Sequence record: PZ618369.1
DNA: 39,474 bases
Source: a phage
Reading direction: 5' to 3' (one strand)
Part shown: piece after piece, positions 406 to 24,373 of the stretch
Numbering within the stretch: position 1 is the stretch's first letter
How the letters are laid out: each line of letters starts with the position of its first letter
Notes under the pieces: generated by a model
Database searches by the model: none
What the model was told of the DNA's origin: nothing
The model's input: the letters and a program-made list of their open reading frames with translations, nothing else
Program-made: the position numbers and the translations under genes

Positions 406-600
406 TCTCACAGTTCAAGAACCTCAAGTCTCCCCATAGGCCTCCTTCAGTCCAGACCAAAGGCCATACCCCAGTCTATCATAAGGTTGGACAGATGGTC
501 AATACTTCAGGTCAACGATAGGTCATGACGATAGGTGGTGGTGGAGACGATAGGTAGGGACTATGGGTCTGTCTCTGAGTCTCCATCTGTATAACCATAA
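406..600. repeat. putative genome left terminus and direct terminal repeat (extent uncertain)
   Basis: TCTCACAGTT...CCCCATAGG at 406 onward resembles the T7 left-end sequence TCTCACAGTGTACGG...CCCCCATAGGGGG as I recall it; followed by CTCTGAGTCTCCATCTGT similar to the end of the T7 terminal repeat. Confidence 0.3.
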
Positions 601-740
601 GTCACTAACCATAGGTCCTACAACCATAGGTCCTACAACCATAGGTCCTACAACCATAGGTCCTACAACCTACAGTCTCAACCATAAGACACCAACACCT
701 ACAGTCATAGACCTACAGTTAATAGACACACAGCTATAGA
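585..740. repeat. tandem short-repeat array: four perfect 15-bp copies of CCATAGGTCCTACAA at 609-668 with degenerate flanking copies
   Basis: read directly from sequence; analogous to the short-repeat array after the left terminal repeat of T7. Confidence 0.8.
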
Positions 741-7707: not shown

Positions 7708-8793
7708 ATGATAACTATTAAAACTAACCCGCACCGCGCTGTAGATTACTCTGAGTCTGGCGTTAAGAAGGCTCTGGAAGCTGCCGGGTCGCTGGAAGCT
7801 GAAGTGAAGTACGATGGTGTCCGGTTGAATCTTCTGGTCTTCCCTACTGGTGAGACTCAATGGTTGAGTCGTGAGTCTAAACCTCTCCCAGCTCTTGAGT
7901 GGCTGTCAGTCCTTACCAACATCGACAACATCGTTGATGACCAGCAAAAAGCTAGCGACTGGCGGTGGTTCCTTAAGCAGGCGGGCTACGAAGGCATGGG
8001 CCTGATGATTGATGGTGAGGTCATGGTTCCTGCAACCGACTTCAACACTTCCTCAGGTCTAGTCCGTACCATGTGGTCAGACACTAAGAACTACGCTTGG
8101 AATGGCAACCCAGATGCTGACATCGACACCAAGAAGAAGCATAAGGTCCCTTTCCATCTGGCAACCGACCACATCCGCGTGGTTGTCTACGGTATCGTTG
8201 ACCTTAACGTCATCAACGACCCGAAAGCCGAAGGTCCTATCCATAGCGTCACACGCCTGAAGGCCGAAGCTATCGTCCCTCTCCTCCAGAAATACTTCCC
8301 GGAAATCGACTGGGTTCTGTCTGAGTCACACACGGTCTATGACCTTGAGTCGCTCAACTCCCTGTACGAAGAGAAGCGTCTGGAAGGACACGAGGGTCTG
8401 GTAGTCAAGGACCCACTGGGTAAATACAAGCGTGGCAAGAAGTCAGGAATGTGGAAGATGAAGCCTGAGGAGACCATCGACGGGACCGTATGTGGCCTCG
8501 TGTGGGGGACTCCTGGTAAGGCCAACGAAGGCAAGGTCATTGGCTTTGAGGTACTGCTGGAGGACGGCATGGTAGTGAATGCGTGCGGACTGACTGAGGA
8601 GCAGAAGGATGAGTTCACCGCTTCCGTTCTAAACTGGCGTAAGGGGTTATGCTCAAGCACTATTTATGGAAACCCGTTTGCGGGTAATCAGGTGGAAGTC
8701 CTATTCATGGAGCGCTTCCCTGATGGCTCCCTTCGTCATCCCAGCTTCAAGTGCTGGCGTGGAACGGAAGACAATCCAACCGTTAAGAGCTAA
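7708..8793 (+). CDS. 1.3: ATP-dependent DNA ligase (361 aa)
   Basis: KYDGVR adenylation motif; EGHEGLVVKDP, KRGKKSGMWKMKPE and DGSLRHPSF match recalled T7 ligase. Confidence 0.95.
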   Translation: MITIKTNPHRAVDYSESGVKKALEAAGSLEAEVKYDGVRLNLLVFPTGETQWLSRESKPLPALEWLSVLTNIDNIVDDQQKASDWRWFLKQAGYEGMGLMIDGEVMVPATDFNTSSGLVRTMWSDTKNYAWNGNPDADIDTKKKHKVPFHLATDHIRVVVYGIVDLNVINDPKAEGPIHSVTRLKAEAIVPLLQKYFPEIDWVLSESHTVYDLESLNSLYEEKRLEGHEGLVVKDPLGKYKRGKKSGMWKMKPEETIDGTVCGLVWGTPGKANEGKVIGFEVLLEDGMVVNACGLTEEQKDEFTASVLNWRKGLCSSTIYGNPFAGNQVEVLFMERFPDGSLRHPSFKCWRGTEDNPTVKS

Positions 8794-14277: not shown

Positions 14278-16449
14278 ATGTTTGACCTTAAGAGTATCTG
14301 GGGTTCTGACATCGAGACCAACGGTCTCCTTGATACAGTCTCCCAGTTCCACTGTGGGGTCCTGATTAACGCCGAGTCGAATGAGACCCTTAAGTACGGG
14401 GTAGCTCCGATGGTCGGTATCGTCGGTGGCTTCAAAGAGTATGTTCATAAAGTGGAAGAGATTGCCGCATCACCTGATGGTATGCTTGTCTTCCATAACG
14501 GTATCAACTATGACGTCCCGGCTATAGACAAGCTGAAGCGTCTGTACTTTGGGAAACGTTTTAACTTCCCGAAACACAAGATGATTGATACCTTGGTGCT
14601 GGGCCGCTTGATGTATCCAAACATTAAGTTCTCAGACATAGGCGCGGTGAAAGCTGGTCATCTGTCACCTAATATGATGGGACGTCAGTCTCTTGAGGCT
14701 TGGGGTTATCGTCTCGGTGAGATGAAAGGTGAGTACAAACACGATTACGTTGCCAAGTGCAAGGCTGAAGGTATCGAATATAAGGCCGGGGACGAATGGC
14801 TGTTCCCGTCTCAGGAGATGCTGGACTATAACGTTCAAGACGTTGTGGTCACACTGGCGTTGTTCAAGAAGTTCCTGACTGACAAGTATTACTTCCAGTC
14901 TGAACAGTTCGCTTTCGACCAGATTTATGCGTTGCGTCTGGAACATGATGCTGCGTGGACCTGTGCGAAGATGGAACGTAACGGCTATCCGATGAACACC
15001 GAGATGGTCGAAGGCTTATATCGTGAACTCACCGTCAAACGTGCAGAGCTGCTGGACAAGCTGCGTTCGACTTTCGGTAGCTGGTACGCACCAAAGGGAG
15101 GCAAGGAGTTCTTCAAGCACCCCCGGACAGGCAAGGACCTTCCGAAGTATCCGAGAGTCGTGTATCCTAAGGTAGGGTCAGTATTCAAGAAGCCGAAGAA
15201 CAAAGCTCAACGCTTAGGTCTGGAGCCTTGCGAGTTCGACTCACGAGACATGATGGAGGGAGCACCGTTCACACCTATCACTTACGTTGAGTTCAATCCG
15301 GGGAGCGGAGACCACTTAGCGAAAGTCTTGATGGAGCGTGGCTGGGAGCCTGTAGACTTCACTGACACCGGGAAACCTGTAGTCGATGACGAGACGTTAG
15401 AACACGTTAAGCTACCAGACGCAGAGGCTCAGGCTTGCGTAGAGCTAGTTCGTGAGTATCTGGTAGTCCAGAAGCGCATCGGTCAGGCGGCTGAAGGTAA
15501 GAACGCATGGTTGAAACTTGTAGGTACAGACGGACGTATGCACGGTTCAATCAACCCATGCGGGGCAGTAACCGGACGTGCGACTCACAGTTCACCAAAC
15601 ATGGCTCAGGTCCCTGCTAACGGTGCTCCGTATGGTGAGATTTGCCGTGGAGCTTTCGGTGCAGCTTGGAACAAGACTAACGGTGAGCCAGACCCTTGGA
15701 TTCAGGTTGGTGTGGATGCTTCAGGTCTTGAGCTGCGCTGTCTGGGGAACAGAGCGGCTCCGTTTGATGGTGGAGACTATGCGAAGACTGTGGTCGAAGG
15801 TGACATCCACTGGGCCAACGCAGTAAACGCTGGGTTAGCACCTAACGTCCCACGCGATAAGTCTAACCATGACCATGATGCTTTCCGTAACAACGCTAAG
15901 ACGTTCATCTATGCGTTCCTGTATGGTGCAGGGGCCGCTAAGATTGGACTGATAGTTGGCGGTGGTAAGAAGGAAGGTGCTGCCCTGATGAAGAAATTCA
16001 TTGAGGGTACACCAGCTATCAAGGATCTGCGAGAGGCTGTGCAGAACACGCTCATCTCAGAGTCCAAATGGGTAGACGGTGAGAACATAGTGAAGTGGAA
16101 ACGTCGATGGCTGAAAGGTCTGGACGGTCGCCGCATTCACATCCGGTCGCCACACTCAGCACTTAACGCTCTACTTCAGGGTGATGGTGCGGTTGTCTGT
16201 AAGCACTGGATTGTCGAGACCGAGCGTATGCTCGAAGAGGCAGGGTATGTCCACGGCTGGGAAGGAGACTTCGCGTACATGGCTTGGGTTCACGATGAGC
16301 TACAGATTGCGTGTCGTACTCAGGAGATTGCCGAAGAAGTCGTCAAGATTGCTCAACTTGCTATGCGTAAGGTGGGTGAGTTCTATAACTTTAAATGTGT
16401 CCTTGATACCGAAGGTAAGATTGGACCAACGTGGAAGGAGTGTCACTAA
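14278..16449 (+). CDS. 5: DNA polymerase (723 aa)
   Basis: exo motif DIETNGL, YDVPA, pol motifs DASGLELR, KTFIYAFLYGAG and MAWVHDE; collinear with recalled T7 gp5. Confidence 0.97.
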   Translation: MFDLKSIWGSDIETNGLLDTVSQFHCGVLINAESNETLKYGVAPMVGIVGGFKEYVHKVEEIAASPDGMLVFHNGINYDVPAIDKLKRLYFGKRFNFPKHKMIDTLVLGRLMYPNIKFSDIGAVKAGHLSPNMMGRQSLEAWGYRLGEMKGEYKHDYVAKCKAEGIEYKAGDEWLFPSQEMLDYNVQDVVVTLALFKKFLTDKYYFQSEQFAFDQIYALRLEHDAAWTCAKMERNGYPMNTEMVEGLYRELTVKRAELLDKLRSTFGSWYAPKGGKEFFKHPRTGKDLPKYPRVVYPKVGSVFKKPKNKAQRLGLEPCEFDSRDMMEGAPFTPITYVEFNPGSGDHLAKVLMERGWEPVDFTDTGKPVVDDETLEHVKLPDAEAQACVELVREYLVVQKRIGQAAEGKNAWLKLVGTDGRMHGSINPCGAVTGRATHSSPNMAQVPANGAPYGEICRGAFGAAWNKTNGEPDPWIQVGVDASGLELRCLGNRAAPFDGGDYAKTVVEGDIHWANAVNAGLAPNVPRDKSNHDHDAFRNNAKTFIYAFLYGAGAAKIGLIVGGGKKEGAALMKKFIEGTPAIKDLREAVQNTLISESKWVDGENIVKWKRRWLKGLDGRRIHIRSPHSALNALLQGDGAVVCKHWIVETERMLEEAGYVHGWEGDFAYMAWVHDELQIACRTQEIAEEVVKIAQLAMRKVGEFYNFKCVLDTEGKIGPTWKECH

Positions 16450-16637
16450 TGGGCCATTATGACATCGCATACGAAGAGTTCGCTGAAGAAACACGCAGGC
16501 GTGAAGAGCTACGTCAGTCGCGGTGCGAACATCCAGATTGGGTACTTGTCTACTGCACGCAGGATGGCAAGCCAAAAGTAACTCAGTGCAGACTGTGTGG
16601 AAAGACCAATCACATTGAATCAAAAGGAGAAATCTAA
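16449..16637 (+). CDS. small Cys-containing protein (62 aa), possible zinc ribbon
   Basis: ATG overlaps gene 5 stop; AAGGAG RBS; contains CEH...C...CRLCGK. Confidence 0.45.
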   Translation: MGHYDIAYEEFAEETRRREELRQSRCEHPDWVLVYCTQDGKPKVTQCRLCGKTNHIESKGEI

Positions 16638-16927
16638 TGGCTATGACCAAACGTATGCGAGTTTCGTTCTCGCTGGGTGCTGTGTTGTCAACTGAAAACG
16701 TGGAGAACTTCAAGAAGACTCTCTGCGAGCTGAGCCGTAAGGTCCTCAACGGAGAGAAGACCACTGGTTTTGAGCGTAAGGCGGTAGAGGTTGGTGTGAC
16801 TGAAGGCCTGGAAGCTGTAGTCGAACTGGTTTTCAAGAAAGGCATCGTAGATGGGCTGAAAGAAGACCTGAGCAGTTACGCTGACCAGACGAGCTTTGGT
16901 AACTTCCGGGTGGAGTTCAAGCAATGA
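16637..16927 (+). CDS. 5.5: gp5.5-like protein (H-NS-binding in T7)
   Basis: N-terminal MAMTKRMRVSF matches recalled T7 gp5.5 MAMTKKFKVSF; size 96 aa. Confidence 0.8.
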   Translation: MAMTKRMRVSFSLGAVLSTENVENFKKTLCELSRKVLNGEKTTGFERKAVEVGVTEGLEAVVELVFKKGIVDGLKEDLSSYADQTSFGNFRVEFKQ

Positions 16928-17133
16928 GTGAATACTTACGGGTCCTAGCGGCCCTTAAGTCCTGCCCGAAGACCTTTCAGTCAAACTATGTGCGCAACAA
17001 CGCTGCACTTGTTGCTGAGGCTGCGAGTCGTGGACATCTAAGCTGCCTGTCTATGGATGGGCGTAACAACGGTGCGTGGGAAATTACGTCTGCTGGCACC
17101 AAGTTCCTAAATCAACATGGAGGCTGTCTATGA
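16924..17133 (+). CDS. 5.7: gp5.7-like protein (69 aa)
   Basis: MSEYLRVLAALKSCPKTFQSNYVRNNAALVAEAASRGH matches recalled T7 gp5.7 almost residue for residue. Confidence 0.85.
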   Translation: MSEYLRVLAALKSCPKTFQSNYVRNNAALVAEAASRGHLSCLSMDGRNNGAWEITSAGTKFLNQHGGCL

Positions 17134-17408
17134 ATCAAGACGTATCAGGACGCGAACTTAAGGTAGGACAGAAGGTTGCTTTCTGTCTGGCTGGAAAATC
17201 CTACGCAATGTGTATAGGAGAAGTCGTCAGGGTAATGCCTAAGACGGTATCCATCAAGCATAAGACATTTATTCGCTGGAAAGGAGCTGCCGAGGAAGTC
17301 GAGACGGTGCGTGCATTCTCTTCAGTGTGTATCGTTGAGGAGCCGAAAGTTTCCTTGATGCCAGCTACAGTCGCTATGGCTACAGGAGGTCTGGACGATG
17401 GGTGCTGA
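17130..17408 (+). CDS. hypothetical protein (92 aa) at the gene 5.9 position
   Basis: ATG overlaps gene 5.7 stop; GGAGG RBS; no similarity to recalled T7 gp5.9. Confidence 0.5.
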   Translation: MNQDVSGRELKVGQKVAFCLAGKSYAMCIGEVVRVMPKTVSIKHKTFIRWKGAAEEVETVRAFSSVCIVEEPKVSLMPATVAMATGGLDDGC

Positions 17409-18270
17409 GAAGAAGAAGATAGCTCTTGTTCTTGATGGTGACTATCTGGTCTTCTCTTCTATGGCTGCTGCCGAGGACGAGACAGATTGGGGCGATGACA
17501 TCTGGACCCTTATCTGCGACCACGAGAAGGCTCGCCGTATACTTGAGAACACCATCGCTGAAATCGTTAAGAAGCGCAAGGCGTGGAAAGACGCTAAGAT
17601 TGTGATGTGCTTTACTGACGATAATAACTGGCGTAAGGACGTGCTTCCTACCTATAAGGCCAACCGTAAAGGTTCTCGCAAGCCTGTAGGTTACAAGAAG
17701 TTCGTAGCCGAAGTGATGGCTGACCAACGGTTCAACAGCTTCCTTCGTCCTACGCTTGAGGGTGATGACTGTATGGGTATCATCGGGACCCGACCTCAGA
17801 TTGTCGGATGTGACCATGCGGTTCTGGTGTCCTGTGACAAGGACTTCAAGACCATCCCGAACTGTGAGTTCTTCTGGTTAACAACTGGTGAAATCCTGAG
17901 TCATACGACTGCCGAGGCAGACTACTGGCACATGGAGCAGACCATCAAGGGCGACACTACAGATGGCTACGGTGGTATTCCGGGGATGGGTGAGGACACC
18001 ACTCGTGCGTTCCTTGACGAGCCGTACTACTTCGTGCAGGAGAGCCGTGAGCTTAAGACTGGTAAGAACAAAGGCCAGATTAAGACTGAGTGGAAGAAGT
18101 ATCCTAAGCGTGAAGACATGACGCTGTGGGACTGCATGGTGACTCTGGCTGCTAAAGCTGGGATGACCGAGGAGGAACTTCTGGTCCAAGCTCAGGTAGC
18201 TCGTATTTGTCGAGCATCTGACTATGACCCTAAGTCCAAGGAGGTCATCCTGTGGACACCATCCATGTAA
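17398..18270 (+). CDS. 6: 5'-3' exonuclease (290 aa)
   Basis: CDKDFKTIPNC and TIKGDTTDGYGGIPG match recalled T7 gp6. Confidence 0.93.
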   Translation: MGAEKKKIALVLDGDYLVFSSMAAAEDETDWGDDIWTLICDHEKARRILENTIAEIVKKRKAWKDAKIVMCFTDDNNWRKDVLPTYKANRKGSRKPVGYKKFVAEVMADQRFNSFLRPTLEGDDCMGIIGTRPQIVGCDHAVLVSCDKDFKTIPNCEFFWLTTGEILSHTTAEADYWHMEQTIKGDTTDGYGGIPGMGEDTTRAFLDEPYYFVQESRELKTGKNKGQIKTEWKKYPKREDMTLWDCMVTLAAKAGMTEEELLVQAQVARICRASDYDPKSKEVILWTPSM

Positions 18271-23579: not shown

Positions 23580-24146
23580 ATGGCTCAATACATTCCACTG
23601 AATGCTAACGATGACTTAGATGCCATCAACGATATGTTAGCCGCTATCGGTGAACCAGCAGTCCTACAGCTTGACGAGGGGAACGCTGACGTCTCGAACG
23701 CTCTACGTATCCTGCATCGCGTCAATCGTCAGGTCCAAGCTAAAGGCTGGAACTTTAACATCAACGAAGCAGCTGTCCTGACACCTGACATCCAAGACAA
23801 TAGGATTCGATTCTTGCCGTCATACCTTCGTGTAATGACCGCTGGGGCCACCAGCTACTACAGCAACATGGGTGGGTACCTGTACGACCTGTCCACCCAG
23901 TCAACCACTTTCACCGACCCTATCACGGTAGAGCTTGTGGAGATGAAGCCATTCTCCGAGATGCCTGTGGTCTTCAGGGACTACATCGTAACTAAAGCTA
24001 GCCGTGAGTTCAACGCTAAGTTCTTCGGTAGCCCAGAGTCAGAGCTATACCTTCGTGAGCAGGAAGCAGAACTCTATCAGCAGGTTATGGAGTACGAGAT
24101 GGACACTGGTCGCTACAACATGATGTCTGACATCGGGAGGGACTAA
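23580..24146 (+). CDS. 11: tail tubular protein A
   Basis: synteny and size (188 aa); first gene after the terminator. Confidence 0.85.
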   Translation: MAQYIPLNANDDLDAINDMLAAIGEPAVLQLDEGNADVSNALRILHRVNRQVQAKGWNFNINEAAVLTPDIQDNRIRFLPSYLRVMTAGATSYYSNMGGYLYDLSTQSTTFTDPITVELVEMKPFSEMPVVFRDYIVTKASREFNAKFFGSPESELYLREQEAELYQQVMEYEMDTGRYNMMSDIGRD

Positions 24147-24373
24147 TGGCTAGTCACAACCTGAAGATTCACCGCCAGCACTTTGGTCCGGTACAGCTAG
24201 GTCTAAAGACAGCAGAGCTGAGACTTAACGACCGGGACTTTAAGGTTGGCGATTGGCTTATCCTGAATGAATGGGACAACGGGTATACTGGACAACAGGT
24301 AGCACGTAAGGTTGTCCACATTGCTGACGTTGGTGACATCGCTGAGGGATACGTTCTAATGAGTATGATTTAA
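24146..24373 (+). CDS. ASCH/PUA-like (DUF3850-like) small protein (75 aa) inserted between genes 11 and 12
   Basis: HNLKIHRQHFGPVQLGLKTAELRLNDRDFKVGDWLILNEWD...YTG fits my recollection of the DUF3850 signature; ATG overlaps the gene 11 stop. Confidence 0.55.
   Translation: MASHNLKIHRQHFGPVQLGLKTAELRLNDRDFKVGDWLILNEWDNGYTGQQVARKVVHIADVGDIAEGYVLMSMI

Follow-up and report, generated by a model that had tools for sequence, protein, structure and literature searches.

In phage T7, the gene 5.5 product is an H-NS-binding protein, gp5.7 is host-directed, and the gene 6 exonuclease produces ligatable nicks during replication. Gene 5.9 follows gene 5.7, and its 3′ end overlaps gene 6. Its product, Gp5.9, is a small protein of 52 aa with a pI of 4.08 and a net charge of -8.5, and it is described as non-essential in a note to the T7 record. 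Gp5.9 is an acidic DNA mimic that inhibits RecBCD and is alpha-helical, forming a parallel coiled-coil dimer (PMC9836394).

Gp5.9 is detected by tblastn in 187 of 50,697 phage records, a count that is a lower bound, as a 52-aa query is blind to very distant relatives. All but three of these records carry it at 80% identity or more, and all of them are named as T7, T3, Yersinia, and related types. Gp5.9 is a lineage-specific gene, and its absence is normal for K1F-like phages.

The DNA analysed here, hereafter the window, is a stretch of 39,474 nucleotides (sequence record PZ618369.1) from a Kayfunavirus whose closest GenBank relatives are K1F-like phages of Escherichia, Salmonella, and Enterobacter. 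Between its homologues of genes 5.7 and 6 lies an open reading frame (ORF) that occupies the position of gene 5.9 and, like gene 5.9, overlaps gene 6 at its 3′ end (Table 1). The initial annotation described the occupant of this slot as a 92-aa protein that is neither acidic nor similar to Gp5.9, and both points are borne out. The ORF product is mildly basic, with a pI of 8.41 and a net charge of +1.6. BLASTP comparison with Gp5.9 of T7 (NC_001604) and T3 (NC_003298) finds no alignment with the E limit raised to 1000, and hhalign comparison of the ORF family profile with Gp5.9 gives a probability of 0.06%. The two proteins also belong to different PHROGs, 2251 for the ORF and 9014 for Gp5.9. 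Both are small and non-essential, the latter judged for the ORF family from its absence in K1F, but they differ in pI (8.4 for the ORF versus 4.1 for Gp5.9) and in length (92 versus 52 aa). Because its charge is near neutral, the ORF barrel described below would not be a DNA mimic. A tblastn search for a gp5.9 homologue over all six frames of the window returns chance-level matches only, the best at an E of 0.14.

Table 1. Features of the gene 5.5 to gene 6 region and the ligase gene of the window, numbered from the first nucleotide of the window.
Feature	Position	Strand	Evidence and remarks
ATP-dependent DNA ligase (gene 1.3 homologue)	7708..8793	+	PF01068, 1e-20; PF17879, 5e-22
Gene 5.5 homologue	16637..16927	+	Pfam Phage_T7_55, 3e-07; phrog_1452, 6e-28
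Gene 5.7 homologue, adjoining the ORF upstream	16924..17133	+	Aligns along its length with T7 gp5.7; phrog_1334, 1e-38
Ribosome-binding site of the ORF, GGAGG	17119..17123	+	6 bases ahead of the ATG; read from the sequence
ORF in the gene 5.9 position	17130..17408	+	92 codons plus TGA (17406-17408); ATG at 17130
Core domain, aa 1-72	17130..17345	+	DUF7205/phrog_2251; predicted five-stranded SH3/Tudor/KOW-like barrel (AlphaFold2)
C-terminal tail, aa 73-92, KVSLMPATVAMATGGLDDGC	17346..17405	+	Predicted disordered; slot-specific, not family-specific
Ribosome-binding site of gene 6, AGGAGG	17384..17389	+	Within the tail coding sequence, 8 bases before the gene 6 ATG
Gene 6, 5′-3′ exonuclease, downstream of and overlapping the ORF	17398..18270	+	PF02739, 3e-09; phrog_107, 6e-80

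The ORF is a real gene under strong purifying selection. Over the core, Nei-Gojobori comparison with five relatives (SP7, EcoDS1, P762, vB_Ecl_MII_004, and Mt1B1_P3) gives dN/dS values of 0.06-0.21, with values of 0.06-0.08 at a dS of 0.6-1.1. Its start codon overlaps the stop codon of gene 5.7 in the tetranucleotide ATGA (17130-17133), and its final 11 bases are shared with gene 6, whose ATG lies at 17398. No promoter-like or terminator-like sites rise above expectation in the ORF region. Together, these overlapping starts and stops and the lack of promoter and terminator signals indicate that the ORF is one of a run of overlapping genes. A GTG start at 17076, which would extend the protein to 110 aa, is rejected: homologues begin at the ATG (MNQD/MSQD), which is also the codon that the ribosome-binding site serves, and the GTG frame would fall within gene 5.7. 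The exact 92-aa sequence is absent from a collection of 15 billion proteins.

DUF7205 (PF23835, phrog_2251) is a catalogued, uncharacterised protein family, and the identity and anatomy of the ORF as a new, tail-bearing member of it can be given with high confidence. Residues 2-71 match phrog_2251, a 74-position profile of unknown function, with an E of 1.7e-21, and the same PHROG is matched by all 92 homologues sampled. A family profile built here scores the ORF at 2e-36. The tag PF23835 is precomputed for homologues up to 93% identical to the ORF, and membership is assigned through these tagged proteins; the Pfam-A copy scanned, which appears to lack this model, gives no PF23835 match for the ORF or even for proteins that bear the tag. 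The ORF shares with the family its core of about 70 aa and its conserved positions, D4, G7, G13, V16, and K38, together with R61 in the closer set, all of which are present in the window protein. As in the window, the members in EcoDS1, Vec13, and Przondovirus lie directly upstream of an exonuclease gene. The window protein differs from the family in its extra 20-residue tail.

A profile search over 1.84 billion representative proteins recovers 640 homologue clusters at E ≤ 1e-3, nearly all of them stand-alone proteins of 60-90 aa. Net charge varies over the family, with pI values of 5.3-9.3. There is no DUF7205 paralogue in the window and no family member in T7. Ten longer DUF7205-containing proteins have no informative fusion partner in Pfam, where the only match above the curated cut-off is DUF6465 in P0068. 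An NCBIfam search with the ORF returns nothing. A Pfam match to CusF_Ec, seen with the ORF, its core, and close homologues, is sub-threshold (E 0.012-0.03) and is taken as a chance or generic barrel signal. A literature search for PF23835, DUF7205, and phrog_2251 found no papers and no experiment on any member.

The ORF core is predicted to fall in the Tudor/KOW/SH3-like barrel fold class. AlphaFold2, supplied with an alignment of 27 sequences, models residues 1-72 with a pLDDT of about 90 (block means 85-93) and places strands at residues 15-20, 23-35, 39-48, 53-62, and 66-70. The tail is disordered in this model, with a pLDDT below 50 at residues 75-84 and 86-92. Structure prediction, which the initial annotation had proposed as a check, gives a five-stranded, all-beta barrel with a disordered tail, unlike the coiled-coil dimer of Gp5.9. 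Foldseek comparison with viral models (BFVD) retrieves uncharacterised phage proteins only. Two family profiles searched against PDB sequences return nothing below an E of 0.07; the best hits, the SMUBP-2 1B barrel and the uL24 KOW domain, are both non-significant.

The SH3-like small barrels include Tudor, NusG/Spt5 KOW, PWWP, NdhS, PsaE, and the Tudor-like C-terminal domain of ProQ, none of which has a significant sequence match to DUF7205. DUF7205 differs from them in being a stand-alone protein and no part of a larger factor. Relationship to the ProQ C-terminal domain was considered and rejected. The window protein has no match to the phage ProQ C-terminal-like domain PF24203, to which 14 of 92 relatives give sub-threshold matches (best 24.6 bits against a cut-off of 27), and hhalign comparison with the C-terminal domain of E. 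coli ProQ, in a sequence checked against PDB 5nbb, gives a probability of 1.7%.

DUF7205 genes are recurrently located beside ATP-dependent DNA ligase genes. In a neighbourhood sample of 12 representatives, picked by hit-list rank and not by context, few in number and partly related by descent, a ligase gene adjoins the DUF7205 gene in four. It is directly upstream and overlaps by 4 bases in P0047, and it is directly downstream, across gaps of 2-10 bases, in P0051, P0058, and P0065. The ligase gene lies within three genes in two more, at a distance of two or three small genes (P0055 and P0060), and four genes away in another (P0049). One representative, P0053, occupies the 5.9 slot and adjoins the exonuclease gene, and the remaining four (P0057, P0062, P0068, and P0072) have no ligase gene nearby. 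A search for related loci with a narrow alignment gives seven, and in two IMG/VR loci a ligase-like gene overlaps the DUF7205 gene. The ligase-like gene of L030 lies upstream of DUF7205, unusually placed after the DNA polymerase gene, and that of L031 lies downstream.

DUF7205 is also found elsewhere in the genome, both in Pseudomonas Pakpunavirus myophages and in other T7-like phages. The gene order in Pseudomonas phage PAK_P2 is DUF7205, a small ORF, dCMP deaminase, and ligase, and that in Pseudomonas phage phTUNSm is ligase, two small ORFs, and DUF7205. The ligase association looks real because a lone ligase gene in a genome of 40-100 kb would lie this near a random gene only a few percent of the time, although this estimate applies to a small, uncontrolled sample. 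A separate observation is that one DUF7205 member belongs to a series of small early ORFs, one of which encodes a homologue of Gad2 (anti-Gabija).

The best overall explanation, which has about an even chance of being correct, is that the ORF is an accessory DUF7205 barrel gene with a binding role in replication or repair. It is a translated accessory gene of the class II DNA-metabolism region of a K1F-like phage, encoding a predicted barrel of about 70 residues and a disordered tail of 20. The barrel would most likely bind a protein or nucleic-acid partner, as a small module acting in phage DNA replication or repair. A dedicated nucleic-acid binder is not favoured because the pI of the family spans both acidic and basic values, and DUF7205 cannot be a core replication factor because K1F is entirely without the gene.

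The gene neighbourhoods point to enzymes that make and seal nicks as candidate partners, which may be the gene 6 5′-3′ exonuclease in the window and ATP-dependent DNA ligase elsewhere. A link between the ORF, or DUF7205 as a whole, and nick processing is a tentative working hypothesis, suggested by gene order and rather unlikely as it stands. More doubtful again is a narrower version, in which DUF7205 proteins would be dedicated adaptors of phage nick-processing enzymes, either ligase or, in Kayfunavirus and Przondovirus, the gene 6 flap exonuclease. The role of such adaptors might be, for instance, to recruit or coordinate the maturation of Okazaki fragments where the replisome lacks a sliding clamp, and the window ORF would be the exonuclease-linked form. 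The ligase association is not directly applicable to the window, since 8.3 kb separate the ORF from the ligase gene upstream. Adjacency by itself carries little weight because small accessory genes fill every replication-gene gap in T7-like phages.

The main rival to a role in replication or repair is that the ORF encodes a host-takeover or anti-defence factor, which is possible, if on the unlikely side. The barrel would bind a host protein that has no part in phage DNA replication and block or redirect it, and the location of the gene would reflect the timing of its expression only. The gene is dispensable and patchy, being absent from K1F and represented by unrelated genes in sister phages, a pattern typical of host- or defence-specific accessory genes. 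Its slot neighbours are host-directed in T7, gp5.5 according to a note in the T7 record and gp5.7 as generally known, and one family member keeps company with the Gad2 homologue among small early ORFs. The variable net charge of the family fits protein-protein binding, but no similarity to known anti-defence or takeover proteins is found in Pfam, NCBIfam, PHROGs, or the PDB. A host-directed function would also leave unexplained the repeated tight linkage to ligase in unrelated genome backgrounds.

In Kayfunavirus and Przondovirus, several genes can fill the slot between genes 5.7 and 6 interchangeably, the ORF among them, and a tail-bearing DUF7205 gene in this variable slot is ordinary for Kayfunavirus. 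The slot is empty in K1F, where gene 5.7 overlaps gene 6 directly. EcoDS1 carries the core alone, as a 72-aa ORF with a TAA that overlaps the ATG of gene 6. Vec13 carries a divergent DUF7205 member, 35% identical and with a related tail. About 35 Kayfunavirus-type records have the Vec13 subtype, and Klebsiella Przondovirus has it at 56-61% identity, again directly ahead of the exonuclease gene. The F-type gene of vB_EcoP_F and other F-type phages encodes a 149-aa acidic protein (pI 4.3, phrog_4382), and 56 records have this occupant at an identity of at least 80%.

The ORF splits at about residue 71 in both DNA and protein searches. Its core (ORF bases 1-219) occurs in 28 phage records, in about 26-27 of which the tail is missing and the gene ends at the core. 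Among 50,697 phage records, vB_EcoP_SP7 is the only one to combine this core subtype with the tail, and it is 96% identical to the window in both DNA and protein. The tail DNA (ORF bases 206-279) is 96-97% identical to the 3′ end of the F-type slot gene. The vB_EcoP_F protein ends in RIEEPKVPLMPYAVAMATGGLDDGC and the window protein in IVEEPKVSLMPATVAMATGGLDDGC; comparison of these C-terminal ends places the junction between core and tail at the last barrel strand. The two proteins occupy the same slot and have their last 23 or so residues in common, whereas their bodies are unrelated and that of vB_EcoP_F is strongly acidic. The AGGAGG stretch of the gene 6 ribosome-binding site is kept in SP7, Vec13, and vB_EcoP_F. 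The tail DNA probably serves as a constant junction that holds the ribosome-binding site and start of gene 6 while the body upstream is exchanged or deleted by recombination.

An improbable alternative to such a junction is that the 92-aa form is a functionally new chimera whose tail, a short peptide with the consensus L-x-x-A-T-V-x-M-A, docks the slot proteins to a common partner such as gp6. The same tail is found on two unrelated protein bodies, a weak pattern, L[LMP]xAT[VLIM]x[AM][AM], recurs in divergent members with differing 3′ ends, and disordered tails often fold only upon binding. However, the core works without the tail, given that about 26 of the 28 core-bearing records are tailless. 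Most of the differences between the window and vB_EcoP_F tails alter the amino acid, a sign of weak constraint on the tail. Conservation is strongest where gene 6 has its ribosome-binding site and start, so that it is accounted for by the DNA, and RNA structure at the tail and gene 6 start is not unusual (z = -0.18).

Klebsiella phage IL33 carries, in order, genes 5.5 and 5.7, a DUF7205 gene, a 54-aa ORF, a gene for a 55-aa acidic protein, and the exonuclease gene. The 55-aa protein (phrog_6234) is putatively annotated as a host RecBCD nuclease inhibitor and has no similarity to T7 Gp5.9. Like the F-type protein, it is strongly acidic (pI 4.05) and unrelated in its body to the window protein, and it accompanies a DUF7205 gene rather than substituting for one. 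Since one gene run contains both, DUF7205 and an acidic protein resembling Gp5.9 in kind do not stand in for each other. No acidic inhibitor of the phrog_6234 type is found when the window is searched for one.

The initial annotation offered two readings of the ORF, as a non-homologous replacement of Gp5.9 or as a sign that the phage handles RecBCD differently. The ORF is indeed non-homologous to Gp5.9, and the homology to the T7 or T3 protein that the initial annotation named as refuting it is not found, but neither replacement nor different handling of RecBCD is supported, and the same four lines bear on both: Gp5.9 is lineage-specific, the slot is variable, the family is found elsewhere, and the two kinds of protein co-occur in IL33. 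The ORF is unrelated to Gp5.9 and is no established substitute for it, with no sign of a replacement.

It is very improbable that the ORF is a functional analogue of Gp5.9, modulating RecBCD or another host nuclease without DNA mimicry in the manner of P22 Abc2 on RecC. RecBCD modulators that are not DNA mimics are known, with Abc2 as the example (PMC9836394), and the ORF does lie in the gene 5.9 position, just ahead of the recombination exonuclease. No countermeasure to RecBCD is otherwise evident in the window, which has neither gp5.9 nor a protein of the phrog_6234 type; however, a missing Gp5.9 needs no compensation, since Gp5.9 is itself non-essential in T7. The basic pI and predicted beta-barrel of the ORF set it apart from the Gp5.9 coiled coil, and the slot is empty in K1F. 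The family member of IL33 shares its gene run with an annotated RecBCD inhibitor, and members in other phages sit at positions unrelated to gene 6.

That the ORF is a chance reading frame or decaying remnant and no functional gene, an idea with nothing beyond its small size and the label "hypothetical protein" in related records in its favour, is a negligible prospect: it is effectively refuted by the dN/dS values, and the gene has a good ribosome-binding site, start and stop overlaps with both neighbours, hundreds of homologous clusters, and a confidently predicted fold.

For the window, the result is mainly corrective, in that the ORF gives no grounds to propose a novel phage response to RecBCD. 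Cassette exchange in a tightly packed operon is clearly illustrated by the slot between genes 5.7 and 6, where a conserved junction would preserve translation of the essential gene downstream. For DUF7205, a family of 640 clusters, the recurrent position beside ATP-dependent DNA ligase genes suggests a first testable hypothesis, in which these small barrels may take part in nick processing.

The slot occupied by the DUF7205 ORF of the window is filled in 56 related phage records by a 149-aa, strongly acidic protein of family phrog_4382 (pI 4.3, charge -19), represented by that of Escherichia phage vB_EcoP_F. This 149-aa protein and the window ORF have a C-terminal tail in common. Homologues of the former are present in Klebsiella Przondoviruses (43% identity) and in 88-kb myophages (~32% identity). 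Judged from its charge, the phrog_4382 protein could be a DNA mimic.

The corresponding slot of Klebsiella phage vB_KpnP_IL33 contains a DUF7205 gene, a 54-aa ORF (phrog_12303), and a gene for a 55-aa acidic protein (phrog_6234) that bears the annotation "host RecBCD nuclease inhibitor". This label appears to be positional or inherited, because the phrog_6234 protein has no BLAST similarity to T7 Gp5.9.

Three slot-type DUF7205 proteins among the metagenomic relatives (P0032, P0033, and P0037; 109-136 aa in total) extend past the tail with a C-terminal stretch containing CxxC...CxxC, which by its sequence looks like a zinc ribbon. By DNA alignment, gene 6 of the window has, near its start (MGAEKKKIAL), one AAG (Lys) codon more than SP7, Vec13, and vB_EcoP_F.

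The slot of T7 gene 5.3 holds an HNH endonuclease or another small ORF in related phages. The 62-aa protein found there in the window contains two cysteine pairs, CEHPDW...C and CRLC, and its residue pattern likewise resembles a zinc ribbon. It matches phrog_27296 at E 3e-16, a family annotated as unknown function, and Pfam gives no hit.

Elsewhere in the window, a perfect tandem repeat of a 15-base unit, AACCATAGGTCCTAC, is present in 4.3 copies near the left genome end, within a 58-aa ORF that is probably spurious. Between the window genes equivalent by position to tail genes 11 and 12, where no gene is annotated in T7, is a 75-aa ORF with matches to DUF3850 at E 2e-19 and to the ASCH domain at E 1e-05.

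Coordinates of the slot occupants and of other features in the window and related phages
Feature	Location	Remark
Tandem repeat	window 607-670	
58-aa ORF	window 563-739	
ATP-dependent DNA ligase	window 7708-8793	for comparison with DUF7205-ligase loci
62-aa protein	window 16449-16637	slot of T7 gene 5.3
DUF7205 ORF	window 17130-17408	
Gene 6 start region with the additional AAG codon	window 17398-17420	
75-aa ORF	window 24146-24373	between genes matching tail genes 11 and 12 by position
149-aa protein, vB_EcoP_F	L002:1126-1575	same slot as window 17130-17408
Three small genes, vB_KpnP_IL33	L016:1495-2034	flanked by 5.7 and the exonuclease gene

In other phages, ATP-dependent DNA ligase genes directly adjoin or overlap DUF7205 genes (loci L017, L018, L023, L030, L031, L036, and L041), an adjacency that spans several unrelated phage backgrounds and both gene orders. 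Drawn from gene neighbourhoods, this association with ligase is a candidate and the sole functional lead for the DUF7205 family.
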